Positions 1,007 through 28,177 of a stretch of DNA of 64,000 nt are shown in pieces. How positions within the stretch are numbered: position 1 is the first letter of the stretch; each line of letters starts with the position of its first letter. This DNA comes from Minisyncoccia bacterium (GTDB lineage: Bacteria; Patescibacteriota; Minisyncoccia; Phycocordibacterales; JAKFXT01). The stretch is from contig JBGPJO010000001.1 in the NCBI GenBank assembly GCA_041485465.1, forward strand, positions 102,190 through 166,189, given 5' to 3'. The position numbers were made by a program, and so were the translations under genes. Under the pieces are notes generated by a model. It did not search any database, was not told where the DNA came from, and saw only the letters and a program-made list of their open reading frames with translations.

Positions 1007-1921
1007 ATGGCTGTCCCCGCAACAATTCTATTTTATAGAGTACAATGTATTCCCATGAAGAATCCGCGAAAAATCCTGCCTGATGAATTTCCGCCGCTTC
1101 TAAAAGAAATTCCCGATGCCCCTAAATTTCTCTATATAGAAGGAGAACTGCCGGATCCTCTTGAACACACCTATCTTGCAGTTGTCGGTTCAAGAAAATA
1201 TTCGCGCTACGGGGAAGATGTATGTGGAAAGTTAATCGAGGGCCTGCGGGGCCATTCTATTGTTATAGTTTCCGGACTTGCGCTTGGAATCGACTCTATC
1301 GCCCACGAGGCAGCGCTTGAAGCAAACCTTAAAACAACTGCCATTCCCGGCTCGGGACTAGATGATGCGGTTCTCTATCCGGCAAGCAATAAGAAACTGG
1401 CTAAAAAAATACTTGATCAGGGTGGAGCATTACTTTCCGAGTTCGAGCCGAATTTTCGAGCAACGCCCTATGCTTTCCCGCAACGCAACCGAATCATGGC
1501 TGGCATTTCAAAAGCAGTACTCGTGATTGAGGCTGAAAAGAAGTCGGGGACGCTTATCACGGCACGTCTTGCACTTAATTACAACCGGGACGTGTTGGCC
1601 GTACCCGGATCGATTTTTTCAAAAACATCCGAGGGACCGCACCAGCTTATTAAAAATGGCGCAACTCCAGTAACGGAAAGTAAGGAAATCCTTGAAGCCC
1701 TTGGGTTTTCAGTTGAAAATCTTTCTTCTGAAACGACTCTTGAAATCGAAAACTGCTCTCCGGAAGAAAAAAGAATTCTCGAACTCCTCCGCGAGCCCCT
1801 TCCCAAGGACGAACTTATCCGTAAAGCTTCTCTTCCGACACATGCGGTAAGCGCGCTTCTTTCCATGCTTGAAATAAAAGGAATCATAAAAGAAAGCGGC
1901 GGAGAAATTCGGCGCCTGTAA
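1007..1921 (+). CDS. dprA: DNA processing protein DprA/Smf (alternative start at Met 1055, MKNPRK)
   Basis: Motifs VVGSRKYSRYGEDVCGKL, SGLALGIDSIAHEAAL, RNRIMAGIS and a C-terminal winged-helix-like tail. Classic dprA-topA synteny. Confidence 0.85.
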   Translation: MAVPATILFYRVQCIPMKNPRKILPDEFPPLLKEIPDAPKFLYIEGELPDPLEHTYLAVVGSRKYSRYGEDVCGKLIEGLRGHSIVIVSGLALGIDSIAHEAALEANLKTTAIPGSGLDDAVLYPASNKKLAKKILDQGGALLSEFEPNFRATPYAFPQRNRIMAGISKAVLVIEAEKKSGTLITARLALNYNRDVLAVPGSIFSKTSEGPHQLIKNGATPVTESKEILEALGFSVENLSSETTLEIENCSPEEKRILELLREPLPKDELIRKASLPTHAVSALLSMLEIKGIIKESGGEIRRL

Positions 1922-1974
1922 CGCACTCAAATTTGCCAAGGATGAATCCTTGTGGTATTGCTTAAACCCATACT

Positions 1975-4152
1975 ATGAGATTGTTAATTGTCGAATCCCC
2001 CGCAAAAGCTAAAACGATTGAAAAATACTTGGGCGATGACTTTACCGTCCGCGCCTCAGTCGGGCACATCCGCGATCTGCCAAAAAAAAATAAAGACGCC
2101 ATCGATATCGGTGGCGGTTTTGTACCCAAGTACGTCACCGTCGCCGGCAAGGAAAAAGTTATCCATGAGCTTATAGGATTAGCAAAAGAGGCTGATGAGA
2201 TCTATCTTGCAACCGACCCCGACCGCGAAGGAGAAGCGATTGCCTGGCACATCAAGGAAGCAATCGGCTTAAAGAACCCGAAGCGGATTGTCTTCCACGA
2301 AATCACCGAGGAAGCGCTAAAAGAAGCGCTTGAACATCCCCGGAAAATCGATATGAAATTAAAAGAGGCGCAGGAAGCTCGCCGCGTGCTTGATCGCCTC
2401 GTTGGTTATGATCTTTCAGGGCTTATTTGGAGAAAAGTGCGTTATGGTCTCTCGGCCGGACGCGTCCAGTCGCCGGCACTTCGTATTATTCTCGAGCGAG
2501 AACGCGAAATCAGGGCTTTTACGAGCGAAAAGTTTTGGGTGATAACCGCGCTCGTTAAAACTGAAAAAGGTATTGATCTTACGCTCACCTGTGAGGAAGA
2601 ACCACGGGACGGAGACGAGGTTATCAAGATACTAACGGCCGGAAAGGCGGGCCCGTGGAGTATTTTTGATGTTACTGAGAGTGAAGCAAAGAGGAGTCCC
2701 CGGGCTCCCTTCACCACTTCGACGCTTCAGCAGTCGGCAAGTTCGCGCGTCGGTTTTTCGCCATCAAGGACAATGTCGGTTGCCCAGAAACTCTACGAAA
2801 ACGGCCTGATTACGTATATGAGAACTGACAGCACCTCAATTTCAAGCGCCGCTCAAAAAAATATTATCGACATGATACGGAAAGAGTTTGGCGAGATATA
2901 TGTTTCTCCCCGTATCTATAAAACAAAAAGTAGGAACGCCCAGGAAGCACACGAGGCGATTCGCCCTACCACTATCTCCCTTCGCGGTAGCGGCAGAACA
3001 GACGAGCAAAAAAAATTATATCGGCTGATTCACGAGCGGGCACTCTCCTCTCAAATGACCGACGCGAAAATCTTGCGAACTAAAGTGAGCTCACGTTGTG
3101 GCGACGGTACTATTCCCCCGTTTTCAGTAACCGGCTCGCGCGTGCTCTTTGACGGCTGGCTTAAAGCGGACCCACGCGCCCGCGGCGAGGATGTAGAATT
3201 GCCCGAAGTCAAAAAAGGAGAATCTTTATCGCTCGTCGAAATACATTCCGAAGAAAAGGCAACGGAGCCTCCTTCACGCTACACGGAAGCGGGACTTGTC
3301 AAAGAACTCGAAAAACGTGGCATCGGACGGCCCTCAACCTACGCTTCTATCCTTAAGACGCTCTCGGACCGCGGCTATGTCGAAAAAGTCAACCGGACTC
3401 TTACGCCAACAGACACGGGAGAAGTGGTTTCGACATTTCTTGAGAATAATTTCATCAAGTACATCAGTGATGATTTTACGGCTCATATGGAAGATGAACT
3501 TGATGATATCGCGCGCGGTGAGCGAAGCTATGAAAAAACACTGAAAGATTTTTACGATCCATTCCGCAAAGACGTCAAATCGAAAGAGAAGATCGAGAAA
3601 CTGACGAATCTCGGCCCGGTTCCGAAAGAGTTCAGGTGTCCAAAATGTAACGGCCCCATGATTTTCAAACTTTCCAAAAATGGCAAATTTATGAGTTGCG
3701 TCCGATTCCCCGAATGCGACGGTGCCAGGACAAACGAAGGGCGCGAACTCCAGGGGCCAAAATCGACCGGAAGAAAATGCCCGGATTGCCAAACGGGAAT
3801 CTTGGTTGAGCGTGAAGGACGCTTCGGCACGTTTATCGCCTGTTCGAATTATCCGAAATGCAAACATATTGAGAGCGACCCTGAAGAAGAAGCAAAAAAG
3901 AAAACCGGGGTGAAGTGTCCTGTCTGCGGTAAAGGAGAGTTGATGGAGCGACGGGGGCGTTTTGGGCTCTTTTATAGCTGTTCGAATTATCCGCGGTGCA
4001 AATATGCAATTAAAGCAAAACCAACCGGCAACATCTGCCCGACCTGCGGCTCGCTCATGATGGAGGGAACAAAAACCATTCCGGAGCGCTGTTCCGATAA
4101 GAATTGCCCGAACCATAATCCGCATAAATCTGATAAAGATAAAAAGAAATAA
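1975..4152 (+). CDS. topA: DNA topoisomerase I
   Basis: N-terminus MRLLIVESPAKAKTIEKYLG..VRASVGHIRDLP (TOPRIM), then the catalytic domain and several C-terminal CxxC zinc-ribbon repeats. Confidence 0.95.
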   Translation: MRLLIVESPAKAKTIEKYLGDDFTVRASVGHIRDLPKKNKDAIDIGGGFVPKYVTVAGKEKVIHELIGLAKEADEIYLATDPDREGEAIAWHIKEAIGLKNPKRIVFHEITEEALKEALEHPRKIDMKLKEAQEARRVLDRLVGYDLSGLIWRKVRYGLSAGRVQSPALRIILEREREIRAFTSEKFWVITALVKTEKGIDLTLTCEEEPRDGDEVIKILTAGKAGPWSIFDVTESEAKRSPRAPFTTSTLQQSASSRVGFSPSRTMSVAQKLYENGLITYMRTDSTSISSAAQKNIIDMIRKEFGEIYVSPRIYKTKSRNAQEAHEAIRPTTISLRGSGRTDEQKKLYRLIHERALSSQMTDAKILRTKVSSRCGDGTIPPFSVTGSRVLFDGWLKADPRARGEDVELPEVKKGESLSLVEIHSEEKATEPPSRYTEAGLVKELEKRGIGRPSTYASILKTLSDRGYVEKVNRTLTPTDTGEVVSTFLENNFIKYISDDFTAHMEDELDDIARGERSYEKTLKDFYDPFRKDVKSKEKIEKLTNLGPVPKEFRCPKCNGPMIFKLSKNGKFMSCVRFPECDGARTNEGRELQGPKSTGRKCPDCQTGILVEREGRFGTFIACSNYPKCKHIESDPEEEAKKKTGVKCPVCGKGELMERRGRFGLFYSCSNYPRCKYAIKAKPTGNICPTCGSLMMEGTKTIPERCSDKNCPNHNPHKSDKDKKK

Positions 4153-4178
4153 CCCCGCGTGCGCGGGGTTATTTCTTG
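4153..4178 (+). terminator. Rho-independent terminator after topA
   Basis: GC hairpin ccccgcg-tgc-gcgggg followed by a T-run. Confidence 0.6.
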
Positions 4179-4211
4179 CGTATAAAATTGTAAGCAGTAT
4201 AGAATAGCATA

Positions 4212-5708
4212 ATGACAGCAAAAGAAATCATCGAGAAAATGGACGCTCCGTCGAAGGAGGACCAAGACCTCATCACTAAAGCATTTGCTTTTGCGGAAAA
4301 AATTCATACAAATCACAAACGCTACTCGGGTGAGCCCTATCTTGTCCATCTTTTTGAAACGGGGAAAAATCTGGCCGAGCTTGGAATGGGGGCGGCGACG
4401 ATTGCCGCCGGGCTTCTTCACGATTCGCTTGAAGACGCCGGCGCCAAAGAAGAGGATATCCAAAAAGAATTCGGGCCAGAAATTCTCTTTCTTATCCAGG
4501 GAGTGACCAAGCTCGGTAAATTGAAATATCGGGGCGCGAAGCGCCATACCGAGAGTTTGCGTAAACTCTTCGTCGCCATGTCGCAAGATATCCGGGTACT
4601 GATTATTAAACTGACCGACCGGCTCCATAACATGCAGACGCTTCAGTATGTTCCCCCGTTAAAGCAAAAACGAATCGCTCTTGAAACACTCGAGGTGTAC
4701 GCACCGATTGCCTATCGTCTCGGCATGCGGAAGCTCAATCGGGAGCTTGAAGATTTAGCCTTTCCATTCGTCTTTCCTGAAGAGTATGCAAAGACGGAAG
4801 CAGTGCTTAGAAAGAAAAACAAGGAGACCGCAAAACCACTTGAGAAAGTTCTTAATAGTATTAAAAAGGCGCTTGCCAAAAGCGCTATAACAGACTTCAA
4901 AACTGATTTCCGCGTCAAAGGGCTCTACAGTCTCCACAAAAAACTGGTACGCAAAGATATGGATATCGAAAAAGTCTATGATATTGCGGCAATCCGGATC
5001 ATCGTGCCAACGGTTGCCGACTGCTACAAGGTGCTCGGCATCATTCACAGTTCCTTTAGACCGCTTCCGGGGAGAATCAAGGACTACATCGCCTTCCCTA
5101 AACCAAACGGCTACCGCTCGATCCACACGACCGTTTTCACTGGGGATGGCGGCATTATCGAAGTCCAGATTCGAACCGAGGAAATGCAGCGCGAGTCCGA
5201 GTACGGCATCGCCTCCCATCTCTCATACAAAGACGATAACGGTAAGAAGGCCCGGAACGCGAATATTCTATGGATTATGAGCCTGCTTCGGCCTCAAATC
5301 TTAGCCCAAAGAAAGCCTGATACGGAAAAATTCGTCGATGTCCCCCAGTGGATCAAACATCTCGCAAAAACAGAGCTCTCAAACGAACCTGATGAGTATA
5401 TAGAAACCCTGAAAAGCGATTTCTTCGGTCATCGGGTTTTTGTCTTCACACCGAAAGGTGATGTGATTGATCTTCCTTCTGACTCAAGCCCCATTGATTT
5501 TGCGTATGCCATTCATTCAGATATAGGTAATCATATTTCGGGCGTTAAATTAAACGGCAAACTGGTCACCCTTGATACCAAACTAAAAAACGGCGACATT
5601 GTTGAAATCGTCACCAAGGAAAAAAGTAAACCTTCCTCGAAGTGGCTCGAACTCGTGAAAACGACCGAAGCACGGCGGCATATCAAAAATATTCTTCACC
5701 TTGGCTGA
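4212..5708 (+). CDS. rel: Bifunctional (p)ppGpp synthetase/hydrolase of the RelA/SpoT family; short form with HD + synthetase + TGS and no ACT domain
   Basis: HD motif AAGLLHDSLED, synthetase region RVKGLYSLHKKL..DIAAIRIIV..YRSIHTTV, TGS domain FVFTPKGDVIDLP..DFAYAIHSDIG. Confidence 0.85.
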   Translation: MTAKEIIEKMDAPSKEDQDLITKAFAFAEKIHTNHKRYSGEPYLVHLFETGKNLAELGMGAATIAAGLLHDSLEDAGAKEEDIQKEFGPEILFLIQGVTKLGKLKYRGAKRHTESLRKLFVAMSQDIRVLIIKLTDRLHNMQTLQYVPPLKQKRIALETLEVYAPIAYRLGMRKLNRELEDLAFPFVFPEEYAKTEAVLRKKNKETAKPLEKVLNSIKKALAKSAITDFKTDFRVKGLYSLHKKLVRKDMDIEKVYDIAAIRIIVPTVADCYKVLGIIHSSFRPLPGRIKDYIAFPKPNGYRSIHTTVFTGDGGIIEVQIRTEEMQRESEYGIASHLSYKDDNGKKARNANILWIMSLLRPQILAQRKPDTEKFVDVPQWIKHLAKTELSNEPDEYIETLKSDFFGHRVFVFTPKGDVIDLPSDSSPIDFAYAIHSDIGNHISGVKLNGKLVTLDTKLKNGDIVEIVTKEKSKPSSKWLELVKTTEARRHIKNILHLG

Positions 5709-5710
5709 TA

Positions 5711-6703
5711 TCAGATCGAGAAATCCTTAACCGAGTAGAGATCATCGCTCTTGTTTTCTTCATCGCTCTTTTCGGCAAGCGGCTTATCCTCCAGGGTTTG
5801 GGGAATGTCTTCTTTTTTATTGATGCCAAGCGCGTCTCTCGTTGTCGCAATAAATTTTTCCATAAGATTGGTTGGGTTCTTGGTTGAACCGATGAGATCA
5901 AGAATGGTGCGCAGGTCGTCTTTCGAGAAGAAATCAATGACTATTTTCCCGCCTTGTTCTTTGCGCTCAATTTTTACCCGAGTACCGAGGGATTCGGTCA
6001 ATTTTTGTTCAAGTTCAATCATCTCGGTATCTATCACTTCTTTTTTTCTTACCCGGTCGGTCGCAATGCGCCTGGCTATCGCCTCCGCCTCGCGGACAGT
6101 GAGTCGTTTAAAGAGAATTTCTTTGTAAAGCGTCCCTTGCTCTTCCGGATGATCAACAAGCATGAGCAGTGGGCGGGTATGCCCTTCGCTGATTTTCCCT
6201 TCGGCAAGCGCTCGTTGAAACTCTTCGGGAAGAGAAAGCAGCCGGAGGGTGTTTGAAACATATTCACGGCTCTTCCCTATCTTCTGCGCAATTTCGGCGT
6301 GTTTAAATTTAAATTCCGTAACAAGCCGCTCAAAGGCCCGAGCCCGATCGATCGCATTCAAATCTTCGCGCTGCAAGTTCTCGATGATAGCAAGTTCAAG
6401 CTTGGTACGGGCATCGTCAGCAGATGCCCGGATAAGCGCCGGCACCTGAGACAGCCCGGCCATCTTTGAAGCGCGCAACCGGCGCTCTCCGGCAATCAGC
6501 TCATATTCAACCTGAAGCCCCCCTTCCGACTTTTCGTGTTCCTGACGCGTTACAATCAAAGGTTGAAGAACTCCATATTGGCGAATAGAATCAGCCAGAT
6601 CTTTTAGTCGGGCTTCATCAAACTCCCTCCGTGGCTGATACGGGTTTGGACTTATCTTGTCGATATCAATCCAGAAAATTGAATCTCCGTAAAATTGCGA
6701 CAT
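5711..6703 (-). CDS. parB: ParB/Spo0J-like partition protein with a long charged C-terminal tail; no parA adjacent
   Basis: N-terminus ISPNPYQPRREFDEARLKDLADSIRQYGVLQPLIV and the GERRLRA box. Confidence 0.8.
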   Translation of the reverse strand: MSQFYGDSIFWIDIDKISPNPYQPRREFDEARLKDLADSIRQYGVLQPLIVTRQEHEKSEGGLQVEYELIAGERRLRASKMAGLSQVPALIRASADDARTKLELAIIENLQREDLNAIDRARAFERLVTEFKFKHAEIAQKIGKSREYVSNTLRLLSLPEEFQRALAEGKISEGHTRPLLMLVDHPEEQGTLYKEILFKRLTVREAEAIARRIATDRVRKKEVIDTEMIELEQKLTESLGTRVKIERKEQGGKIVIDFFSKDDLRTILDLIGSTKNPTNLMEKFIATTRDALGINKKEDIPQTLEDKPLAEKSDEENKSDDLYSVKDFSI

Positions 6704-17484: not shown

Positions 17485-17558
17485 GGGCGTAGTGGCGAAG
17501 TGGTAACGCGGCGGTCTGCAAAACCGACATGCAGGGGTTCGATTCCCCTCTACGCCTC
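17485..17558 (+). tRNA. tRNA-Cys(GCA)
   Basis: Cloverleaf with anticodon loop cuGCAaa and T-arm aggggttcgattcccct. Confidence 0.7.
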
Positions 17559-17596
17559 ACAGAACATGGTCGAAAAAGTCTTCGGAGAAATATAAT

Positions 17597-17681
17597 TGCC
17601 CGGGTGGCGGAATTGGTATACGCGCACGACTTAAAATCGTGTCTCGCAAGGGATGTGGGTTCGATCCCCACCCCGGGCACC
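17597..17681 (+). tRNA. tRNA-Leu(TAA), type II, CCA encoded
   Basis: gcccggg acceptor, anticodon loop cuUAAaa, long variable arm, ...cccgggcacca. Confidence 0.85.
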
Positions 17682-17729
17682 ATAAGTAAATTGAAAAAAC
17701 TCTGAAAGTAGCTTAGAGTTTCTTATTAT

Positions 17730-17802
17730 CCGCCCATAGCTCAGTTGGTAGAGCGGCTCCCTCTTAAGGAGATGGTCGCAGGTTCGAATCCTGCTGGGCG
17801 GA
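17730..17802 (+). tRNA. tRNA-Lys(CTT)
   Basis: Acceptor ccgccca/tgggcgg, D-arm gctcagttggtagagc, anticodon loop cuCUUaa, T-arm gcaggttcgaatcctgc. Confidence 0.8.
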
Positions 17803-17823
17803 CACGAATAAAAAATTCGTATT

Positions 17824-17905
17824 GGGCGGGTGGCGGAATTGGTATACGCGCATGGCTTAGGACCATGTCCCGAAAGGGGTGGAGGTTCAAGTCCTCTCCC
17901 GCCCA
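17824..17905 (+). tRNA. tRNA-Leu(TAG), type II
   Basis: Acceptor gggcggg/cccgccc, anticodon stem catgg/ccatg with loop cuUAGga, long variable arm. Confidence 0.85.
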
Positions 17906-17958
17906 CAAATTCACAATGGAAATTTCGCGTGTCTTTATGCTCTGTTACAATTAACAGT

Positions 17959-19413
17959 ATGAAAAAGCTTATTCTTTTTTTGGCTGTTAATTATTATTTA
18001 TTTTTCTTTGGAGCCCTCGTGACATCCGCCGATATCCCTCCTTCTGTCAATAATCTGTATATCAGTGCTTCAAGTATAAATTCCGGCCAGCCGATCGGTT
18101 TTACCTGGTCGCTTTCAAATAGTTCCGGTTCGTCTTTCATTATTCCCTGCCAAACGGGCATTAAAATTTCGTATGCGGACGGTAGCGGATCGCTTTCCTG
18201 TGGTAGCCGATATGCTCTTTCAAACCCATCAAATGGCTCCGCTTCTCTCGCCATCAACAATGTAACCGGTGGCCTAAGAACGATTACATTTCAGGTGATA
18301 CCAAAGGATATGTCGGGAACCGATTATGATTCCGGTCTTGTACAAACACAAATTACCCTCTATACACTTTCAGAACCGATCACCGACTTAACCATTAATC
18401 CGACAACACTGACATCCGGAAGCGGTGCAACACTTACGTGGGCAGGCCACGTCGTTGATGGTGTCAATATCTCAATTGACTGTAGCGACGGCGTCACTGT
18501 TTCATCACCAAATTACACAAACAGCCTCTACATTCCCTGTGGCATCTCCCCCGCATTTCCATCAGACCTTGGGGTCTTAGGGTCGCTCCCCCTGACATTC
18601 AACAATCAAAGCGACAACACAAAAACGATCACGATTAAACTTTTGCCGGTGATTACCTCAGGTCTCTATGACGGCACTCACGCGAAAATAGTGACGATTG
18701 ACGTTAAGCCAAAAACGGCAACACCGTTAAGCATTGATTCATTCTCCGCATCTTCAACAACAGTATTGTCCGGATCTCCGGTAAAAGTATCCTGGTCAAT
18801 CAGCAACAGCGCTGGCGCAAATTTTTATCTTATGTGCGACAGCGGGAATATAATGGCTACCTCTTCAGCAAATCCGAACGGTACTCTTCCTTGCAATCAA
18901 AAATATATTTCCGATACGGACTTCGGAAGTTCCGGATTGCTTACGTTTCAATTCAGTGACATCGGGAGTACCGCGCAACCGGTGAGCCTCACTCTTGTTC
19001 CCTCTCCTCAAACAGGTACTTACGATGGCACAAAATCAAAAACTATTTCCTTCCTCGTTACAAAAACCAGCATTTCTTCAACACAATATTACGGGACATA
19101 TCCGACAGGAAGCGTTAACCAGGGAACGACAAATACCGCTCAGACATCATTTAAAAAAGCGCGCGTACTGTTTGCCCGAGGCTTAAGAGTCGGCATCACG
19201 GGAGATGATGTCAAGGCCCTTCAAGAATTTTTCGCACAGGATAAGACAATTTATCCTGAAGGACTGACCACTGGCTATTTTGGATCGGCAACTCTTCGAG
19301 CCATACAAAGATTCCAAGCAAAATACGGTATCGCAACCTCGGGGACACCGGACACCACCGGCTATGGCGCTCTCGGCCCTAAAACCCGCGCCCTGATAAA
19401 CGGATTCAAGTAA
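17959..19413 (+). CDS. Secreted protein with three ~115-aa Cys-containing Ig-like tandem repeats and a C-terminal peptidoglycan-binding (PG_binding_1-like) domain
   Basis: Start reassigned to MKKLILFLAVNYYLFFFGALVTSA (signal peptide), because the upstream part of the track ORF overlaps tRNA-Leu. Three internal repeats each carry two Cys. C-terminus GDDVKALQEFFAQDKTIYPEGLTTGYFGSATLRAIQRFQAKYGI. Confidence 0.65.
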   Translation: MKKLILFLAVNYYLFFFGALVTSADIPPSVNNLYISASSINSGQPIGFTWSLSNSSGSSFIIPCQTGIKISYADGSGSLSCGSRYALSNPSNGSASLAINNVTGGLRTITFQVIPKDMSGTDYDSGLVQTQITLYTLSEPITDLTINPTTLTSGSGATLTWAGHVVDGVNISIDCSDGVTVSSPNYTNSLYIPCGISPAFPSDLGVLGSLPLTFNNQSDNTKTITIKLLPVITSGLYDGTHAKIVTIDVKPKTATPLSIDSFSASSTTVLSGSPVKVSWSISNSAGANFYLMCDSGNIMATSSANPNGTLPCNQKYISDTDFGSSGLLTFQFSDIGSTAQPVSLTLVPSPQTGTYDGTKSKTISFLVTKTSISSTQYYGTYPTGSVNQGTTNTAQTSFKKARVLFARGLRVGITGDDVKALQEFFAQDKTIYPEGLTTGYFGSATLRAIQRFQAKYGIATSGTPDTTGYGALGPKTRALINGFK

Positions 19414-19545: not shown

Positions 19546-20595
19546 ATGACCAAAAGACGCTATTACAGCGTGGCTGCGACGCTCTATATGCTCGCGGTCA
19601 TCTTACTCTTGGTATTTGGCTCTTCATACACTTCTCATATCGGTGGCATCAGCATTTGGAACTGGGGTTCCGGACCTCTCGGGCTTCTCGGAGTCTATAC
19701 TCTGATAAGCCTACGGATCGTCGGGCCTACTGAAGTCGGAGCCGTACTTTTCTTCGGCAAGCCTCTCTTTGAGGCAAAGTCTGGACTTGTATTCGTTCCA
19801 CTCGGGATCTGTGAGCTCGTGCTCGAAACCAAACTTCGGATCGAGCAGGAACTGCCGGCTGATCCGGAATTCATCGACCATGGGCACTCAGATGAAGACA
19901 CGGTCAAAAAAGGATATTTCCCTCCAATCAGGATAACTTTTGCCGAGGGAAAGAAGGAAAACATCGACCCTCTCGAGAGACGCCTTACGACGGAAGTCGT
20001 TCCTATGGTTATCTGGCAGATCGACAACTTTCCGAAATTTCTGCAGGCTGTTGGTGATCGTGAAGAAGCACGTGGGCAAATGGCTGACATGGCCGTTTCC
20101 GTGTTTACCGAGATCCTTACAAGAATTTCGGCGGCTACGGCTCTCAAAAGAGTCCCCAAAACTAACGAGAAACTTCTCAAAGATATCAAAGAAAGGACAA
20201 AGGAATGGGGCATCACTGTACACGATGCCCGCATCAAGACTTTCGGTCTTAGCCACGATCTCAATCTGGCGATTCAGAAGATGGCTCAATCATCGGCGGA
20301 AGCCCGTGCAACAGTCATCGAAGCAGAAGCTACAAAAACAAAGAGGAGGCTTGAAGGCGAAGGCGATGGGGCTGCCGAACAGGCTCGCCTTAACGCCAGA
20401 ACTGCCGGTTTCAAAAAAATGGCCGATGATCTCAATGTCGAACCTTCAGTGGTCTTCGGCGCCGAAACCGCGCGAGCGGTAACGGAAAATCCCGGTCTAA
20501 AGACCATCGTCATGGGAACTGAAGGTTTCAAAGAAATCGCCGGCATTGCCAGCGCCCTCAGCGAAACCTTCAAAACTGGGGAGAAACCGGCATGA
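19546..20595 (+). CDS. SPFH/band-7 (stomatin/HflC-like) membrane protein
   Basis: N-terminal TM, then SPFH core VGPTEVGAVLFFGKP..GLVFVPLGI and an Ala/Glu-rich coiled-coil tail. Confidence 0.75.
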   Translation: MTKRRYYSVAATLYMLAVILLLVFGSSYTSHIGGISIWNWGSGPLGLLGVYTLISLRIVGPTEVGAVLFFGKPLFEAKSGLVFVPLGICELVLETKLRIEQELPADPEFIDHGHSDEDTVKKGYFPPIRITFAEGKKENIDPLERRLTTEVVPMVIWQIDNFPKFLQAVGDREEARGQMADMAVSVFTEILTRISAATALKRVPKTNEKLLKDIKERTKEWGITVHDARIKTFGLSHDLNLAIQKMAQSSAEARATVIEAEATKTKRRLEGEGDGAAEQARLNARTAGFKKMADDLNVEPSVVFGAETARAVTENPGLKTIVMGTEGFKEIAGIASALSETFKTGEKPA

Positions 20596-21386
20596 GGCTC
20601 GATCTTATCATCCCCCTCATGCTCATAGCCCTTTGGATACCCTATGCATTTTGGAGGAGATCACAATCCCGCCAATATGCGATCCTAGGGTCACAAATGT
20701 CGCAAACCCCAGGCGGCAATATACAAAAAGATTCGCCGCCGAAAAAGAAATTTGGGGATTGGTGGGAATCACTCACCAAAGCAGATTACTTCCCAGTGGT
20801 GCTTGTCGTAATCGTCTACGCGGCTATTATGGTTGCGTTTGCTCTTCTCTTTCCGGAAACTTTCCAGGAGTGGGAAGGGACAAAGACAAAGATCTTCTGG
20901 GTGTTGTGGCTCGCCCTTCCGACTATCGTTGCGTTTTTCGCAAGAAAAGCCGGCGTGGTCGGTTGGATAGGGGCCGTGGTGCTTATCACCATCTGCTTTG
21001 TTGGGGGCGTCGTAGGTCTGTGGGGTCCTGATTTCTGGAAAAACTTAAGCCCCACCGCTGAAGATATAACGCCTCAATCTGAGCCAAACGTTAGTAAGGC
21101 CTCCATTAAATTGGAGCCCGGCGTCTGGCATGACCTTCGGGCGGAAGGGTTACTTCTTCTCTACCACAGCTTTGACATGAGAGCGTTCGGGTGCCTTGAG
21201 GTAATTTACAATCAAGACATTCCGCGTTTCTATTGCCCGAGCAACGTCCACCCCGATCTCCCAGTTTCCCAAGGAGCAGTCCATATTCCAGAAAACTGGA
21301 AATCACCAGCGACACTTTGGAATGTTCGTGTCCGCTCCTTAACAAAGGAGATTCAGGTCGCGATCATTACAAATAAACCGCGGTGA
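20592..21386 (+). CDS. Hypothetical polytopic membrane protein, translationally coupled to the SPFH gene (ATGA overlap)
   Basis: Four or more hydrophobic helices; no recognisable family; start overlaps the SPFH stop. Confidence 0.45.
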   Translation: MRLDLIIPLMLIALWIPYAFWRRSQSRQYAILGSQMSQTPGGNIQKDSPPKKKFGDWWESLTKADYFPVVLVVIVYAAIMVAFALLFPETFQEWEGTKTKIFWVLWLALPTIVAFFARKAGVVGWIGAVVLITICFVGGVVGLWGPDFWKNLSPTAEDITPQSEPNVSKASIKLEPGVWHDLRAEGLLLLYHSFDMRAFGCLEVIYNQDIPRFYCPSNVHPDLPVSQGAVHIPENWKSPATLWNVRVRSLTKEIQVAIITNKPR

Positions 21387-21448
21387 ATTGTTCAAAAGAC
21401 TAAAGGCGCATTCATTGTATGGATGCGTCTTTTCTTTTTAAATTCATT

Positions 21449-21691
21449 TTATTGGGCTACGGTTGCCTTGATGATATTAACGATTCCAATCGCTCCAACC
21501 ATAACAACAATTCCGATAATGCCGTAGAGAAGATGCCGCTTGCCATCTTCACGTGCCTTAAGATCATCTGCGGCATATACAAACTGAAACACACCCCACA
21601 GAAACATAAGGAAAGCCCACGAGAAAAGGAGAAGAACAATAGGGTTTACAATCGCATTCGAAACCCTATTGATTAAATCATCTACGGTCAT
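21449..21691 (-). CDS. Small two-TM protein, truncated paralog of the pilin-like family (no signal peptide)
   Basis: NPIVLLLFSWAFLMFLWGVFQFVYAADDLKAREDGKRHLLYGIIGIVVMVGAIGIV aligns with the mature regions of the five upstream paralogs. Confidence 0.5.
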   Translation of the reverse strand: MTVDDLINRVSNAIVNPIVLLLFSWAFLMFLWGVFQFVYAADDLKAREDGKRHLLYGIIGIVVMVGAIGIVNIIKATVAQ

Positions 21692-21718
21692 GGGAAAAGC
21701 CCAAAGACTAAAAGAATT

Positions 21719-22084
21719 TTAGAAACCACTTACCGTTGGAGCCTGCAAATTAGTCGTGTTATTTATACCGAGCGTTTGTTGAGCAAGCAATACAATACCG
21801 AAGAGCGATGCCATGACAAAAATGGCGACAAGCGCCCAGAGCATAATACCTCTGCCTTCCCTTTTGGTGTCGGTGCTCTGGGAGAATACATAAAGCATGA
21901 TGCCATAAAAGAATGCCAGAATCGCGAGAGCAAAGACAATCGGAAGAAGAGTCCTGACTATCACTCCGAACGTTTGGACGAGGGTTTGTAAGTTATTGAG
22001 CCCTGTTCCAACCTGCGCTAAAGCAAGAGCTGGAGCGATTGCCGCACCAAGAATGCTTCCTTTGAGAACCTTGTTTCTTAACAT
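21719..22084 (-). CDS. Small secreted two-TM protein, VirB2/TrbC-pilin-like topology (paralog 1)
   Basis: Signal peptide, then LPIVFALAILAFFYGIMLYVFSQSTDTKREGRGIMLWALVAIFVMASLFGIVLL: two hydrophobic helices split by a short charged loop. Confidence 0.55.
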   Translation of the reverse strand: MLRNKVLKGSILGAAIAPALALAQVGTGLNNLQTLVQTFGVIVRTLLPIVFALAILAFFYGIMLYVFSQSTDTKREGRGIMLWALVAIFVMASLFGIVLLAQQTLGINNTTNLQAPTVSGF

Positions 22085-22256
22085 ATACAGTACGCCTTTA
22101 AGAAAAATTATAGTAAATGACCTTTATTAATGCTTATTAATTATTACCGCTCCTATACCTTACACTCTAACAAAATAAGGATCTCTCGACAAACAGGCTT
22201 TGTGGATAGCCTAAGGACTGAATTTCGCTTATTTTACTCAAACTTAGCCTCCACCA

Positions 22257-22643
22257 TTATAAAGGATATGTCTGCGGCAGGCTATTTACTGTCGGAACAT
22301 TAAAATTACTCTGTTGGTCAACCCCGAATGTTTGCTGGGCAAGCTGAATAATGCCAAAGAGTGAAACCATTATAAATAAGGCAATCAATGACCAGAGCAT
22401 GATGCTCTTGCCGTCTTTTTTATCTTCCATGCTTTGTGAAAAAATATAGCGGAAAATACCCCAGAAGAAAGCGAGGATCGCAAGACCAAAGACAATCGGG
22501 AGAGCCGTTTTTACCAGCCGGCCGATACCGTTTAATAATGTGCTTGCAATGCTGATGGCGTCTTGGGCGGCGTAGGCTGATGTCGGAATAAGAGCGAGTA
22601 AAATAATGGTCCCACCCGTATAGAGTTTTTTCATATGATACAA
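22257..22643 (-). CDS. Small secreted two-TM protein, VirB2/TrbC-pilin-like topology (paralog 2)
   Basis: LPIVFGLAILAFFWGIFRYIFSQSMEDKKDGKSIMLWSLIALFIMVSLFGII; roughly 60% identity to paralog 1 in the core. Confidence 0.55.
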   Translation of the reverse strand: MYHMKKLYTGGTIILLALIPTSAYAAQDAISIASTLLNGIGRLVKTALPIVFGLAILAFFWGIFRYIFSQSMEDKKDGKSIMLWSLIALFIMVSLFGIIQLAQQTFGVDQQSNFNVPTVNSLPQTYPL

Positions 22644-22709
22644 ATTAGTAATATCTAAACTGTAACGCCTCCGAGAACCCTGTCAAAGAAAATATCCCCT
22701 GGCTCTCCT

Positions 22710-23006
22710 CTACTGCTGAAGAATAGTTCTCTCAAAAACCGCGACAATGCCCCAGATAGAGAAGACAACAAAAAGAGCAACGAGTCCCCAGCCCATAATA
22801 GCCTTGCTTTTACCTTTTTCCGCTTCCGCATTTGAGAAAACATAGCGAGTAATACCCCATAAAAAGGTAAGAATGATGAGGCCGCTTAAGACTGGAATTG
22901 CGAGATTGATCACGCCCACCACTCTTCCAACCAAAGAGGCGAAGGTGGGCGCCGCAAGCGCGACTGCAGGAATACCTGAGATTAATAACGCAATTACTAT
23001 TTGCAT
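22710..23006 (-). CDS. Small secreted two-TM protein, VirB2/TrbC-pilin-like topology (paralog 3)
   Basis: IPVLSGLIILTFLWGITRYVFSNAEAEKGKSKAIMGWGLVALFVVFSIWGIV. Confidence 0.5.
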   Translation of the reverse strand: MQIVIALLISGIPAVALAAPTFASLVGRVVGVINLAIPVLSGLIILTFLWGITRYVFSNAEAEKGKSKAIMGWGLVALFVVFSIWGIVAVFERTILQQ

Positions 23007-23431
23007 GTTTGCTGTCCCGTTACCTGGTTAATAGTTCCGCAAATAACTTGTGAGAGTGTTTGAGCCCCAAGGAGTATCAACCCACCGATTATCGTCCAGA
23101 ATATCGCTTGTTTCGCGCGTGCGAGAGTCGTCTCATTACCTCGCGCAGTGACAAAGAGAAAGCCTGCATAGACAAGAAAGAAAATGACAACCGGCGCGCC
23201 GATTGCGACAACTATTTGGAGAATTCGGGCGACTAGTTTCTGAATCGAAGTAACATTTAGGGGATTTTGAAGCTGGGTAACACTACCGTTCCCGCCAGGA
23301 TTAACACCCCCTGTATTTCCACCTGCCGCATCGCTGATGAGAGGAAAAGTAACAAAAACATAGCCACAATATATAACTGCAATAACCATTAATATTAACA
23401 GGTGTTGCCGACGTAATAATAAAGATTTCAT
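22997..23431 (-). CDS. Small secreted two-TM protein, VirB2/TrbC-pilin-like topology (paralog 4, divergent)
   Basis: APVVIFFLVYAGFLFVTARGNETTLARAKQAIFWTIIGGLILLGAQ, with a Gly/Asn-rich linker after the signal peptide. Confidence 0.5.
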   Translation of the reverse strand: MKSLLLRRQHLLILMVIAVIYCGYVFVTFPLISDAAGGNTGGVNPGGNGSVTQLQNPLNVTSIQKLVARILQIVVAIGAPVVIFFLVYAGFLFVTARGNETTLARAKQAIFWTIIGGLILLGAQTLSQVICGTINQVTGQQTCK

Positions 23432-23433
23432 AT

Positions 23434-23814
23434 TTAATTTCCTAAAAATTGACCCCCGGGACCTCCGGGATTTCCTAAGGTACTTACTATTAATTTAACC
23501 ACAAGCCAGGCGGATGCCATAAATACCAGACCCCAGAATGCCGTTGTAAAAATGCTCTTCGCCTTGCTCAAATTTTTCCCGCTGCCCGCATCGGTGACAT
23601 AGAGAAATCCGGCATAGGCAAAAAGAAGGGCTGCAACGGGCGCTGCCACGATAAACAAAAAATTAATTATGTTCTCAATCAATGTGCGAAGCGCGTTAAA
23701 ATCGCAATCAGCTCCGCTGCATGGAACAAGGCCTTGGGCGGCAACGGAAGAAGCGGTGTAAAGATAATAAAAGACGAGAGTAAAAAATAGTGCTGATTGG
23801 CGAAGAAAAATCAT
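23434..23814 (-). CDS. Small secreted two-TM protein, VirB2/TrbC-pilin-like topology (paralog 5). Start set to Met 23814 rather than the track's 23985.
   Basis: Internal Met MIFLRQSALFFTLVFYYLYTASSVAAQG gives a signal peptide and removes the overlap with the upstream gene. Core APVAALLFAYAGFLYVTDAGSGKNLSKAKSIFTTAFWGLVFMASAWLVV. Confidence 0.5.
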   Translation of the reverse strand: MIFLRQSALFFTLVFYYLYTASSVAAQGLVPCSGADCDFNALRTLIENIINFLFIVAAPVAALLFAYAGFLYVTDAGSGKNLSKAKSIFTTAFWGLVFMASAWLVVKLIVSTLGNPGGPGGQFLGN

Positions 23815-23815
23815 A

Positions 23816-25111
23816 TTATTGAACAAGATTTCTGATAAGTAACCCGAGTTCAGAGTTCGCCCGGTTGAGGGCACCACTGATCCGATCTTTTCCTGAAATA
23901 ATCGATTCGACCATTTCTTTGAAGATTGCCGTGGTATCTTCGGGCGAAGGATCTTTCCAAGATTTTGCCATGATCGCAGAAGCATAAAAGACTGAAGAAT
24001 AGGGATCTGAAGGCGGGGTGGAAAGAAGATCCCTCCTCACCGGCGGAAGTCCGATTTCATTTTCAAGCTCACGGAGAATATCGGATGATGCCATCCGCAG
24101 GACGGCAGTGACGGCCGCGGTAGTGTTTTTGCCCTGCTTTGGAATGACAAGAGCATAGAGCTTGCCGTACGTAAGACGCGTTTTGCTGTCCCTGATTTGG
24201 GGCAAGACGGTTACATCAAAATCAAGATTCGGGTTTTTACTTCTGATATTTTTAAGCTCGCTTGCAAAACCAAAATATGTAGCGAGTTCCTCACCGATAA
24301 ACGCGTCGCTTGAACCGGGTAAAGATTTATTCCATGAATAGGCGGCATTCACCGGATTCGAAAATTCCGTGTAGAAACGAAGAGCGGCTTCGGCAGGAGG
24401 ACTACTCATACCAAGCGTGTCACTCAGAACCGTCTTTAAATTACCCTGCTGATCAGGAGCGGTAATCGGATCCCCGGCCTGAAGAATCATCCCCGAGAGA
24501 AGCTCTTTGAAATTCGTTATATTGATGGTGTCACCGAGCGCGACAATAGTTTTTTTGATGTTGCCGGCATCGTCTTTTTCGTTGAACTTTGGTGCCAGAG
24601 TAAAAAATTCATCCCAATGCTTAGGTGGTGTTGAAAGAGCCTTTGAAGAAAACATACTGCGGTTCCAATACATGACCAAAGGATCAACTGCAAAGGGTAG
24701 TCCTATAGCGCCTTGCGGCGTCCAAAATATCTCCGCACCATCGATAAAGGTATCCTTGAAATCCCTCTCCGAGAGGCTTGCGCTCGGAATCGGCAACAAT
24801 TTATTTTCTTCCTTAAGAAGAAGACTCTCCGGAAGAATAACCAGGTCGGGGCTTCTGCCGCTTGCAAGAGCGTCAACAAATTCACTTTCAAACGTTGTTC
24901 CGTCTTTTTCAACGTACTGAAGCGTCACCCCCGCCGCCTTAAGTGTGGCCGAGTTTGAAAAAATGGTCATCGCCTCTTCCGGAAATGTCCCCCAGACAAC
25001 AAGCGTCGGCAAGGTGTTGCTGTTACTTCCACGGAAAAGAGCAAATGCGCCGACACCCAAAAGCAAAAAGACGATAAATGCTCCGAGCACAATGGTTTGA
25101 AAAGTGTTCAT
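23816..25111 (-). CDS. Membrane-anchored extracellular solute-binding protein (ABC-type SBP family 1-like); no permease or ATPase genes adjacent
   Basis: N-terminal TM anchor, then a 400-aa periplasmic-binding-protein-like fold (TLVVWGTFPEE.., ..GLPFAVDPLVMYWN..). Confidence 0.55.
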   Translation of the reverse strand: MNTFQTIVLGAFIVFLLLGVGAFALFRGSNSNTLPTLVVWGTFPEEAMTIFSNSATLKAAGVTLQYVEKDGTTFESEFVDALASGRSPDLVILPESLLLKEENKLLPIPSASLSERDFKDTFIDGAEIFWTPQGAIGLPFAVDPLVMYWNRSMFSSKALSTPPKHWDEFFTLAPKFNEKDDAGNIKKTIVALGDTINITNFKELLSGMILQAGDPITAPDQQGNLKTVLSDTLGMSSPPAEAALRFYTEFSNPVNAAYSWNKSLPGSSDAFIGEELATYFGFASELKNIRSKNPNLDFDVTVLPQIRDSKTRLTYGKLYALVIPKQGKNTTAAVTAVLRMASSDILRELENEIGLPPVRRDLLSTPPSDPYSSVFYASAIMAKSWKDPSPEDTTAIFKEMVESIISGKDRISGALNRANSELGLLIRNLVQ

Positions 25112-25638
25112 CGTTTTATGAAAAGAAATCCGTAATGGTGATCGCCCGCCTCAAATTCTAAGAGGAGCGAAAGGCCGCAACTTAACAGGAGACTCTCTGC
25201 CATACTTTTACTTAAAACATCTTTCTCCTGAGGACCGATGCCTCCAAATGAATCGCTCCAATCGATGAGAAGCACCTTTCCACCTTTTTTAAGAATTCTC
25301 ACTGCTTCGTCAACAACATTTTTCTTATTTTCAACTTGAAATAAGATATTTGAAAGAATAACCGCATCAACCGTCTGATCTTTAAGCTTCGTACTTTCCT
25401 TCCCTTCAATGTCCGCCCAGATCGGGTAGATGTTCTGAAGCCGCAGTTTTGACGCCTCGCGCTTAAGTTTACCGAGCAAGTCCTGTTGAATATCGACTGC
25501 GTAAACTTTACCATTGTCTCCAACGAGATTGGCTGAAGCTATGGCGTAGCGTCCCGAACCGGCACCGATATCAATAACGCTCATCCCTTTTTGAAGTTCG
25601 AGATGCGAAAGATTTAGAATTGGATCAGTAAAGGCCAT
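25108..25638 (-). CDS. Class I SAM-dependent methyltransferase
   Basis: VIDIGAGSGRYAI (motif I), ..VDAVILSNILFQV.., ..GGKVLLIDW. 4-nt overlap with the downstream SBP gene. Confidence 0.75.
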   Translation of the reverse strand: MAFTDPILNLSHLELQKGMSVIDIGAGSGRYAIASANLVGDNGKVYAVDIQQDLLGKLKREASKLRLQNIYPIWADIEGKESTKLKDQTVDAVILSNILFQVENKKNVVDEAVRILKKGGKVLLIDWSDSFGGIGPQEKDVLSKSMAESLLLSCGLSLLLEFEAGDHHYGFLFIKR

Positions 25639-25726: not shown

Positions 25727-28177
25727 CTACAAACAAATGATTGAGGCAATTGAATCCCCCTGATAGAGCTTCATGACGCGCACCCCTTGGGTTGCGCGCG
25801 AGAGCGTCGGGATTTCTTTGAGGTCAACCCTAATCACCTGGCTTTTCTTTGAAATAGCAATGACTTCAGAATCGGGATTAAAGACGACTTTGCCGGTGAT
25901 AATCGCGCCGGTTTTAGGCGTGACTTTTGCGGTTTTGATGCCCGAGCCGCCGCGCTTCTGAATTTTATATTCTGTAAGAGACGTGCGTTTGCCGTATCCG
26001 TTATTGCTGATGACGAGAAGCTCCGGGGCTTCATATTCTTTACGAACAACCTCAGCGGCAACAACCGCATCTCCTTTTGCAATTTTAATGACACGAACTC
26101 CTCCCGCCGCTCTTCCCATTTCGCGCACATCGGACTCTTTGAAACGAATGGATTGCCCTTTTGAGCTTCCAATGATCACCGTATCCCCTTTTCCCACAAA
26201 AAATGCCGAGACAAGTGCGTCACCCGAATCAAGCTTGATTGCGATGATGCCGCTCCGTCTCACATCATGGAAATTTTTTGCCGCCGTTTTTTTACCCGTA
26301 CCGTTTTTGGTAACCATAAGAAGCGCCGCCTCGCTCTTTTTAATATCTTTCGACATGGGGAGAATCGAGGAAATTTTTTCGTCAGCGGTCAGTGAGAGGT
26401 AGTTCATGATCGACTTACCGCGCGTTGCGCGCCTGCCTTCCGGAATATCGTACATTTTTATCTTATAGACTTTGCCTTTGTCAGTGAAAAAGAGAAGATC
26501 GCTATGGGTTGAGGTCGTCAAAAACTGAGTGATAAAATCTTCTTCTTTGGTGTCAAGATCGATAACGCCAACGCCGCCTCTTTTTTGCTTGCGATATTCA
26601 TCCGGATTTGTCCGCTTAACATAGCCACCCGCCGTGTAGACCAAGACCGATTCTTCCTCCGGGACCAAATCTTCATCCGAGAGCGCTTTCACTGCGTGCT
26701 TTACGATTTTCGTCTTCCGCTCATCGCCGTATTTTTCCGAAATTTCTTTGAGCTCGTCTTTAATAACGGTCGAGATTTTTTTCGGACTTCCTAAAAGTTC
26801 TTTAAGCTCTCCAATAAGCACCTGCACTTCGCGGAGTTCATCTTCGATTTTTTTCCGCTCAAGTCCGGCAAGTCTCTGAAGCCGCATGTCGAGAATTGCG
26901 TTTGCCTGTAGCTCCGAGAATTTGAACTCTTTCATGAGCGCAAAGCGGGCCGTCTCAACGTCTTTCGATTTCTTGATCAGTTTTATAATTTCATCGATGT
27001 GGTCAAGCGCTTTTTTCAGTCCGAGAAGAATGTGTTCACGGCCTTCCGCTTGCCGTAAATCAAACTCGGTGCGGCGGCGAACGACGAGCTTCCGGTGTTT
27101 GATAAACTCCTCAAGAATTGATTTGAGAGAGAGCGTCTGCGGCACACCGTCGACAAGTGCCACCATGTTGTAATGAAAAGCCTCCTCAAGACGGGTGTGT
27201 TTATAGAGATAATTCAAAACCTTCTGTGGCTCGATCCCCTGCTTCAAATCAATCGCAATCCGAATGTCTCTCGTCGACTCATCCCGCAAGCCCTTAATGC
27301 CTTCAATTTTTTTATCACGCACCAAATCCGCAATCGACATGATGAGATCGGATTTGTTAACACGGAACGGAATTGAAGTAATGATAATTTGGTACACCCC
27401 TCCCTTGGTCTCAACAACATCTGCCTCGCCGCGAACAACCACTCCGCCTTTACCGTTTGCGTAGGCGTGATGAATGTCTTTTTCATTGTAGGCAATCCCC
27501 CCCATCGGAAAATCAGGACCTTTAATAAATTGGAGAAGCTCTTCGGTTGTCGCATCCGCATTATCTATAAGATGAATCGTTGCTTCCGAGACTTCTTTAA
27601 GATTGTGCGGCGGAATGTCGGACGCCATGCCAACCGCGATGCCCAAGGTGCCGTTTAAAAGAAGATTCGGAACAGAAGACGGTAAGACTATCGGCTCTTT
27701 GCGCGTCGAATCATAGTTCGGACGGAAACTGACGGTTTCTTTTTCAAGATCACGCAAAAGCTCTGCGGAGAGGCGCGACATTTTTGCCTCGGTATAGCGC
27801 ATCGCCGCGGCAGAGTCCCCATCAATTGAACCAAAGTTTCCCTGGCCGATTACGAGCGGGTAACGATAGGTAAAATTTTGTGCCATCTTTACCATCGCGT
27901 CATACACGGCAGTATCGCCGTGTGGGTGGTACTTTCCGAGAACATCTCCGACAATCGCGGCGGATTTTCTCTGTTTTGCGGACGCGGTAAGACCCATTTC
28001 CTGCATCGCAAAAAGAATGCGGCGATGAACCGGCTTGAAACCGTCGCGGACATCAGGAAGCGCACGTCCGGTAATAACGGACATGGCATAGTCAAGATAG
28101 CTCTCGCGCATTTCGGTTGAAATCGACCGCTCTAAGATGCCACGCTTTGCATCCTTTTTCTCCTCTTCTTTAGCCAT
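25727..28177 (-). CDS. gyrA: DNA gyrase subunit A
   Basis: [34 protein letters not shown], the [10 protein letters not shown] signature, and C-terminal beta-pinwheel repeats. Confidence 0.95.

Follow-up and report, generated by a model that had tools for sequence, protein, structure and literature searches.

What would six pilin-like genes in tandem be doing behind the gene for a solute-binding protein, with no secretion machinery in sight? The question is raised by a 64,000-nucleotide (nt) stretch of DNA from a Minisyncoccia bacterium (assembly GCA_041485465.1, contig JBGPJO010000001.1, positions 102,190 to 166,189), referred to here in its entirety as the window. Downstream of gyrA, and on the same strand, lie a methyltransferase gene, a gene for a membrane-anchored solute-binding protein (SBP), and six paralogous genes that are numbered c6 to c1 in the order in which they follow the SBP gene (Table 1). 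A first-pass annotation, made from the sequence alone, had read the six products as relatives of the VirB2/TrbC pilins of type IV secretion systems (T4SS). Identification of the six proteins as VirB2-like pilins is well supported by the analyses described below, and functional coupling of the SBP to these pilins is supported moderately.

Tandem arrays of divergent VirB2-like pilins have already been published for the Patescibacteria (Wang et al. 2023 Cell, PMC10633639; Quinonero-Coronel et al. 2025, PMC12102498), and taken by itself the array is therefore less novel. The T4SS of these organisms is essential for epibiotic life, lacks a relaxase, and has an unknown function (PMC10633639, PMC12102498). 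The pilin arrays of its loci are themselves essential (PMC10633639, PMC12857230), and a FEMS review describes six VirB2-like pilins as structurally conserved and divergent in sequence (PMC12857230).

Six paralogs of a VirB2-like pilin family

The six open reading frames (ORFs) were confirmed as consecutive minus-strand genes between 21449 and 23814. Alignment and hydropathy indicate that their products have a core in common, two hydrophobic helices with a short Lys/Glu/Gly loop between them. When each paralog was searched against the T4SS pilin families, all six matched PF18895 (T4SS_pilin), with scores of 43.9 bits for c1, 23.2 for c2, 31.3 for c3, 25.4 for c4, 35.6 for c5, and 29.1 for c6. 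The curated cut-off of this family is 26.6 bits; c1, c3, c5, and c6 pass it and c2 and c4 lie just under it. The strongest match is that of c1, which spans profile positions 2-71 of 71. Matches to TrbC (PF04956) are weak and were obtained for c5 (E 9e-5, 23.0 bits) and c1.

A lineage-specific hidden Markov model (HMM) built from 425 relatives recovered exactly the six array ORFs from the 64 kb (E 1e-18 to 5e-27) and gave no further match in the window, a recovery far beyond chance. Although c2 and c4 fall below the PF18895 cut-off, they are 36-50% identical to c3 and have E values of 1.1e-24 (c2) and 1.8e-22 (c4) with this HMM. A profile of the six paralogs retrieved 127 close relatives, nearly all of them annotated as PF18895 and many also as PF04956, and some are named 'pilin' by NCBI. 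The family is very large: a wider pilin profile matched 92,038 representatives (clustered at 50% identity) among 1.84 billion proteins.

Pairwise BLASTP identities range from 23 to 50%. The proteins c2, c3, and c4 are 36-50% identical to one another (c3/c2 50%, c4/c3 37%), c5 and c6 are 34% identical, and c1 is about 23-28% identical to the others, except that BLASTP found no alignment between c1 and c2. Divergence had been thought to rise along the array; the copies fall instead into three subgroups (c2/c3/c4, c5/c6, and c1). As read from the sequence, the leaders of c2 to c6 are hydrophobic N-terminal segments that close in an A-x-A-like motif, and c1 starts at the first helix.

An AlphaFold2 model of c3, calculated with 55 homologs, is a confident helical hairpin with helices at residues 19-65 and 69-103 and a predicted local distance difference test (pLDDT) score of 83, rising above 90 in the core. 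A Foldseek search of this hairpin against the Protein Data Bank (PDB) gave nothing at E ≤ 0.001, a two-helix hairpin being too simple a fold to discriminate. The PF18895 matches, the weak TrbC matches, and the predicted hairpin all agree with the VirB2/TrbC reading. Pilins of the type IV (PilA) kind, found in type IV pili and type II secretion systems, were rejected: none of the six has a class III leader (G, then F/M-T-L-x-E), and each has two hydrophobic helices. The single match related to type IV pilins was an insignificant one to TadE (E 0.12).

In the global protein library, many members of the family are poly-pilins, in which 2-15 hairpins are strung together in one polypeptide that lacks internal leaders. 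Examples are P0361 (552 aa, six near-identical repeats), P0365 (336 aa), and P0392 (1775 aa, 15 matched stretches). Such proteins are hard to reconcile with polymerization of one subunit at a time and may bear on what the family builds.

A conserved order of pilin classes

Related loci were collected by an SBP-alignment scan of one genome per GTDB species, and the best 80 of at least 573 loci were compared. Each of 425 related pilins was assigned to the class of the window copy to which it is closest. Defined in this way, the classes have an almost invariable order: a c6-type gene, a c5-type gene, one to five copies of the c2/c3/c4 type, and a c1-type gene. Copy number varies in the middle class only.

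The c6 class opens 67 related arrays, and at least two cysteines precede helix 1 in 99% of its members. A c5-class gene comes next after the c6 class in nearly every related array or, if no c6-class gene was found, stands first; the Gly-rich stretch and NP[LF] motif of the c5 class were present in the 6 examples inspected. The c1 class ends most complete arrays and lacks a leader throughout; over 75 copies, its N-terminal extension has a median of 3 aa. The last gene of the window's array, which had been taken for a copy that lost its signal peptide, is thus a member of a conserved class of about 80 aa. Across species the junctions from SBP to c6, c6 to c5, and c5 to the middle class are tight, and the gaps between middle genes are wider. 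Between species, the pilin cores are 33-40% identical, the SBP 45%, and GyrA 70%.

The fixed order of the classes argues that the paralogs may be specialized subunits of one structure rather than interchangeable antigenic variants. Neither recent tandem amplification nor antigenic variation can alone explain the c6, c5, and c1 classes, given their positional orthology across species; for the middle class such an explanation is possible. The description of the array as a diversifying family accordingly holds for genes of the c2-c4 type and fails for the first, second, and last genes, which are conserved positional orthologs. Within the middle class, c3 is a candidate major subunit. The middle class may also be separately promoted: the best promoter consensus match of the region lies upstream of c3 (Table 1), and an exact TATAAT lies within the 172-nt spacer preceding c2. 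These promoter-like sites are consensus matches only and not evidence of function.

Association of the array with a solute-binding protein

The SBP matches SBP_bac_8 and SBP_bac_1 in Pfam (64.6 and 46.2 bits). More than 1900 homologs were found, all in records of the Paceibacteria/Parcubacteria type. Whether the order of SBP, methyltransferase, and pilin genes recurs in relatives can be answered affirmatively. In 75 of 75 loci having more than 700 nt of sequence downstream, an array of 2-8 pilin-like genes lies directly 3' of the SBP gene on the same strand, and the distance from the SBP stop to the first pilin gene in these loci is mostly 0-25 nt, or the genes overlap. The five of the 80 loci without pilins are those in which the sequence ends within 300 nt of the SBP gene. 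Every further gene-context lookup of homologs returned the same order of SBP and then pilins. A methyltransferase homolog is present upstream of the SBP gene in about 70 related loci and absent from about 10.

A single relocated copy of the block was seen (GCA_964619985.1, CAZUII010000005.1, 7443-11503; locus L088). There, a methyltransferase gene, a gene for an SBP fused to a pilin, and four further pilin genes adjoin groES/EL, LemA, and a TPM phosphatase rather than gyrA. Because this copy sits away from gyrA, the block stays intact independently of the surrounding synteny.

Genes for an ATP-binding cassette (ABC) importer that the SBP might serve were looked for around the block. No ORF with both a Walker A motif and an ABC signature is present in the window, and two were found in 85 loci. 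The Pfam-annotated neighborhoods of SBP homologs contain no BPD_transp_1 or ABC_tran domain, a result that covers the surroundings of the block; a partner of the SBP could be encoded elsewhere in the genome.

Dozens of the metagenome-assembled genomes (MAGs) serving as GTDB species representatives, among them those of loci L008, L015, and L017-L021 and many others, are titled 'uncultured Candidatus Saccharibacteria bacterium' and carry a gyrA-methyltransferase-SBP-pilin locus of the Paceibacteria type with 42-46% SBP identity. These titles are probably generic or wrong.

SBP-pilin fusions

In two species loci the SBP gene continues in frame into the first pilin gene, giving ORFs of 560 aa (L042) and 568 aa (L078). 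Five fusion clusters were found in the protein database. P0121, P0122, and P0124 form one group and P0191 and P0195 another, and the two groups are 46% identical. Unfused SBPs are 64% identical to P0121; because they are closer to P0121 than is the other fusion group, there have been either at least two fusion events or one fusion and repeated fission. The pilin fused to the SBP is of the c6 (Cys-loop) type. P0191, which is encoded in the genome with the relocated block, comes from two independent sources, an NCBI MAG and a separate sequencing run.

An AlphaFold2 model of the fused P0121 (pLDDT 83.7) consists of an N-terminal transmembrane (TM) helix, an SBP fold (pLDDT about 90), roughly 40 residues of disordered linker, and a confidently predicted helical hairpin. 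The modeled SBP domain matches mannobiose-, maltodextrin-, and glycerol-3-phosphate-binding proteins (4r9f, MalE2, 2zyo, and UgpB) with E values of about 1e-19 to 5e-21, and its predicted fold is of the oligosaccharide type. The predicted topology of the fusion is coherent, since a mature VirB2-type pilin has its N-terminus outside the cell, where the SBP also lies.

An artifact of gene calling, in which a stop codon is read through, is an unlikely source of the fusions: they are in frame in two loci, the linker and Cys motif are conserved in five clusters, and the datasets are independent. Judging from the sequence of the junction, a lone frameshift or loss of a stop codon near the end of the SBP gene and the start of c6 could create or undo a fusion.

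These observations bear on the alternative that the pilins are ordinary T4SS pilins with the SBP, serving an ABC importer encoded elsewhere, and a housekeeping methyltransferase as mere neighbors. The pilins would then provide host-range or antigenic variety, as has been proposed for the VirB2 proteins of Bartonella and Anaplasma. Adjacency would reflect strongly conserved gene order, the region from gyrA to IF2 being wholly syntenic in relatives. MalE-type SBPs as a rule work with ABC importers, species differ in having from 1 to 5 pilins of the middle class, and a variation model has been suggested for such arrays (PMC12102498). Mere neighborhood does not, however, account well for in-frame fusions that are kept in two lineages and seen in independent datasets, for a block that is intact in a different genomic context, or for SBP-pilin junctions that are tight or overlapping. 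Nor are there ABC genes near the block, and of the four pilin classes three consist of positional orthologs in single copy, as opposed to variable copies. We regard this alternative as unlikely.

Location of the secretion machinery

The window is an ordinary piece of Patescibacterial chromosome. It encodes DprA, TopA, RelA/SpoT, ParB, MiaA, ClpB, an IscS-like protein, translation initiation factor IF2, GyrA, and ribosomal protein S1, as well as Pth, HisS, FtsA, FtsZ, TrxB, TsaD, LeuS, PrsW, LepA, MurJ, a class II ribonucleotide reductase, GroEL, and 14 tRNAs. As had been noted from the sequence, the window contains no VirB4, VirD4, or sortase gene; VirB6 and PrgI are likewise missing from the 64 kb. 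Besides the block, the window has just housekeeping genes. No T4SS gene flanks the array for at least 21 kb in one direction and 38 kb in the other.

Separation of this kind has precedent. A survey that applied PF18895 and PF04956 to 3,035 genomes counted 441 arrays, each with 2-11 pilin genes, at a mean identity of 25% and a maximum of 54% (PMC12102498). In the same survey a pilin gene lies near virB4 (within 20 coding sequences) in 1135 of 1948 assemblies and away from it in 813 of 1948, VirB4 is present in most Paceibacteria assemblies (Table S1 of that paper), and virB4 of Paceibacteria tends to be found close to dnaA/dnaN. The window's array fits the published traits, having six genes on the same strand, identities of 23-50%, and Patescibacterial relatives. 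Since arrays have been published and 813 of the 1948 assemblies have separated pilin genes, the array is a member of the published class and its separation from the machinery is not unusual. The records of block homologs are all from Patescibacteria of the Paceibacteria/Parcubacteria type, which agrees with the episymbiont-like host that had been proposed.

The left end of the window (1007-6703) encodes DprA, TopA, RelA/SpoT, and ParB, and the presence of ParB suggests nearness to the replication origin. T4SS genes could lie just outside this end.

The absence of T4SS genes near the block (none in about 85 loci) would also be expected if the proteins formed a T4SS-independent membrane complex, in which stacked hairpins build a channel or scaffold for uptake or sensing of the sugar that the SBP binds, and 'pilin' is a name inherited through distant homology. 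Polyproteins with 2-15 hairpins fit a membrane bundle easily, and the leaderless c1 class could insert without Sec cleavage. The hairpin of a Saccharibacterial fusion protein, described below, gives a weak match to DctQ, the small subunit of tripartite ATP-independent periplasmic (TRAP) transporters, and one source names the homolog P0292 a TRAP small permease subunit. Set against this are the occurrence of the same family inside T4SS clusters of Saccharibacteria, where it is essential, the detectable homology to TrbC/VirB2, and the frequency with which VirB2 genes lie away from virB4 in Patescibacteria (the 813 of 1948 assemblies of PMC12102498). The block also lacks an energizing component, either an ATPase or an ion-coupled permease. 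We consider such a complex improbable.

Comparison with known systems

The closest published counterpart is the array in the locus SEML1_0006-0019 of Southlakia epibionticum ML1 (PMC10633639). It belongs to the same phylum and, like the array described here, consists of about six divergent hairpin pilins of PF18895 encoded on the same strand. The S. epibionticum array is inside a T4SS gene cluster, whereas no T4SS genes are near the window's array. The latter further differs from the published arrays in being tied to a MalE-type SBP, and usually to a methyltransferase, and in its fixed class order. Full-text literature searches, whose coverage is incomplete, gave no link of VirB2-like pilins from the candidate phyla radiation (CPR) to an SBP, which is absence of evidence only. 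As far as can be told, the variant seen here, in which SBP and pilins form a conserved block, at times covalently linked, and the classes keep a fixed order, is undescribed.

The window's pilins resemble VirB2, TrbC, and TraA of Gram-negative T4SS in being small, in having a leader, and in having two hydrophobic helices with a short basic loop. They differ in scoring under the TrbC cut-off, in belonging to a monoderm host, in being six paralogs instead of one major pilin, and in having no adjacent machinery. The block contains no VirB5 tip protein and no sign of cyclization or acetylation enzymes, the methyltransferase being the sole linked enzyme. The protein c1 has the same length, 80 aa, as the Mbov_0395/MMCAP2_0565 pilin-like protein (NF045849) of a Mycoplasma integrative and conjugative element, and its residues 5-77 align to 7-79 of 80. 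The score of c1 against NF045849 is 31 bits where the cut-off is 40, and the Mycoplasma family is encoded inside a mobile element together with its T4SS, which c1 is not.

Covalent tethering of an SBP at the membrane is known from ABC importers of the OpuA and GlnPQ type, in which the partner of the SBP domain is the ABC permease. In the present fusions a VirB2-like hairpin takes the place of the permease, and the vicinity lacks genes for a permease or an ATPase.

Saccharibacterial relatives provide two further points of comparison. The array that encodes P0358, a match to the same profile, is divergent from genes for a VirB4-like ATPase (P-loop_TraG/AAA_10/DUF87) and for TraC-like, PrgI, and TrbL_3 proteins. 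A T4SS-adjacent array in GCA_024682595.1 (JAIKZA010000008.1, 7094-13588; locus L090), upstream of which VirB4-like, TraC-like, PrgI, and TrbL_3 genes are found in divergent orientation, encodes a 555-aa protein in which a PF18895 hairpin with a Cys pair is followed by two Ig-like Big_2 domains and DUF4886, and also a 242-aa protein with two pilin domains. In view of the 555-aa protein, pilins with extracellular modules are not unique to the SBP block. That protein is not a hidden SBP homolog (hhalign probability 0.2%).

A proposed SBP-bearing pilus

The account that we favor, and consider fairly probable, is a T4SS-type pilus or stalk with its VirB4 machinery encoded elsewhere and the SBP as a coupled carbohydrate-binding module. 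The pilins would enter the membrane in the form of helical hairpins, five of the six following Sec export and removal of the leader. A VirB4-type T4SS, encoded elsewhere in most Paceibacteria and usually near dnaA, would extract them and assemble a short conjugative-type pilus or stalk. The variable middle pilins would form the bulk of this structure and the single-copy classes its base, adaptor, or tip subunits. The SBP would be physically coupled to the first (Cys-loop) pilin as a carbohydrate-recognizing module, acting either as an adhesin for glycans of the host surface or in the capture of sugars that come from the host, rather than within an ABC importer encoded at the locus. In this account we infer the assembly of a filament, the dependence on a distant VirB4, the roles of the classes, the ligand and role of the SBP, and any role of the methyltransferase.

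Several observations weigh against it. The 64 kb window contains no VirB4, VirB3, VirB6, or VirD4 gene, in 80 relatives none lies closer than 10 kb to the block, and no experimentally observed PF18895 filament was found in the literature consulted. Two of the six copies (c2 and c4) are under the Pfam cut-off. Structure and sequence searches of the PDB are uninformative for so simple a hairpin: the best Foldseek match to a conjugative pilus is that of Pyrobaculum (8dft_A), at rank 29 with an E value of 2.6, and a PDB sequence search with the pilin profile gave chance matches only, to cytochrome oxidase helices. The fusions are rare, amounting to 5 clusters among more than 1300 SBP homologs. Finally, the region from gyrA to IF2 is itself syntenic across these genomes, and adjacency is therefore weaker evidence than it appears.

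More tentatively, the locus may represent a dedicated and widely conserved 'SBP-armed' T4SS-type pilus of Paceibacteria, in which the Cys-loop pilin docks, or is fused to, a MalE-type protein on a VirB2-like filament or stalk that recognizes host glycans or captures host sugars and conveys them along its length, the methyltransferase modifying a component. If this were true, it would be the first case of an SBP acting as a subunit or accessory of a T4SS pilus. It would also give a concrete role to the essential and unexplained T4SS of the CPR, a conjugation machine turned into an organ for glycans or sugars.

The pilin arrays are the feature that sets Patescibacterial T4SS apart from those of other monoderms, and the link to the SBP leads to a specific hypothesis on what the structure touches, namely a sugar or a glycan. 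The SBP also supplies a soluble domain whose expression and screening for ligands require no culture of the organism. If its link to the pilins were mere synteny, the locus would be one more member of the published class.

Gene organization and neighboring genes

The positions of the genes of the block and of associated features are given in Table 1. The first-pass annotation had the block's first genes joined by 4-nt overlaps. This is correct for the methyltransferase and SBP genes, and it is not for SBP and c6, where 1 nt separates the SBP stop from the c6 start. A further overlap, of 10 nt, is found between c5 and c4. The c6 frame is open upstream to 23985 (57 codons, 23815-23985), where it overlies the SBP gene's 3' end in a frame different from that of the SBP; because the longer frame would overlap the SBP gene, a start at 23814 is sensible for c6.

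Table 1. Coordinates of the genes of the block and associated features in the window
Feature	Position	Strand	Length	Description
c1	21449-21691	minus	80 aa	Leaderless terminal class; hairpin alone
c2	21719-22084	minus	121 aa	Middle class
c3	22257-22634	minus	125 aa	Middle class; length from ATG (TTG at 22643)
c4	22710-23006	minus	98 aa	Variable middle class; short signal peptide
c5	22997-23431	minus	144 aa	Second-position class; long leader, Gly/Asn-rich segment, NP[LF] motif, then hairpin
c6	23434-23814	minus	126 aa	Cys-loop class, first of the array; leader, PCSGADCDF, helical hairpin
SBP	23816-25111	minus	431 aa	MalE/UgpB-type carbohydrate solute-binding protein; single N-terminal TM helix, membrane-anchored
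Methyltransferase	25108-25638	minus	176 aa	Class I, S-adenosylmethionine-dependent, cytoplasmic; matches Methyltransf_31/25/11; first gene of the block
gyrA	25727-28177	minus		Upstream neighbor of the methyltransferase gene
Promoter-like site	22659-22686	minus		TTGACA, 16-nt spacer, TACAGT; upstream of c3; 10/12, best consensus match of the region
Putative stem-loop terminator	21402-21432			14 bp and T-run; scanner match on plus strand, complement gives minus-strand T-run

The stem-loop lies between the end of the array and a convergent gene at 20592-21386 and, by its sequence, is likely a bidirectional terminator. Convergent with the array, on the plus strand at 19546-21386, are genes for a Band_7/SPFH protein (349 aa) and for a 264-aa membrane protein without a family match. 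In some relatives (L001-L003 and others), homologs of both again come immediately after the array, on the strand opposite to it.

Beyond these two genes is a 527-aa ORF at 17830-19413 (plus strand) that begins inside a tRNA-Leu gene (17824-17906). The ATG at 17959 is probably the real start and gives a protein of 484 aa, as in L001. The 17959-19413 product is secreted, rich in Ser/Thr, and repetitive in its interior. A PG_binding_1 domain at its C-terminus is its sole Pfam match; it lacks a catalytic domain and matches just the wall-binding part of phage endolysin families.

The presence of this peptidoglycan-binding-domain protein 2 kb away, with its partial likeness to endolysins, and the small size and two TM helices of the array proteins might suggest that the latter are holin-like remnants of a prophage lysis cassette. 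None of the six has a match to a PHROG holin, and all six are in PF18895. The wall-binding protein lacks a catalytic lysis domain, is encoded on the opposite strand, and is separated from the array by two genes; no catalytic endolysin gene is nearby. The window contains no phage genes, and the position of the block is conserved in dozens of species. The holin alternative is in practice refuted.

Large proteins of about 470-540 aa without a family match are also encoded repeatedly in relatives, downstream of the array and on the strand opposite to it; they fall into clusters whose representatives are at 14943-16550 in L075, 13684-15090 in L032, and 15566-17176 in L014. In the window, four tRNA genes (Cys-GCA, Leu-TAA, Lys-CTT, and Leu-TAG) are clustered at 17486-17906, about 3.5 kb from the end of the array.

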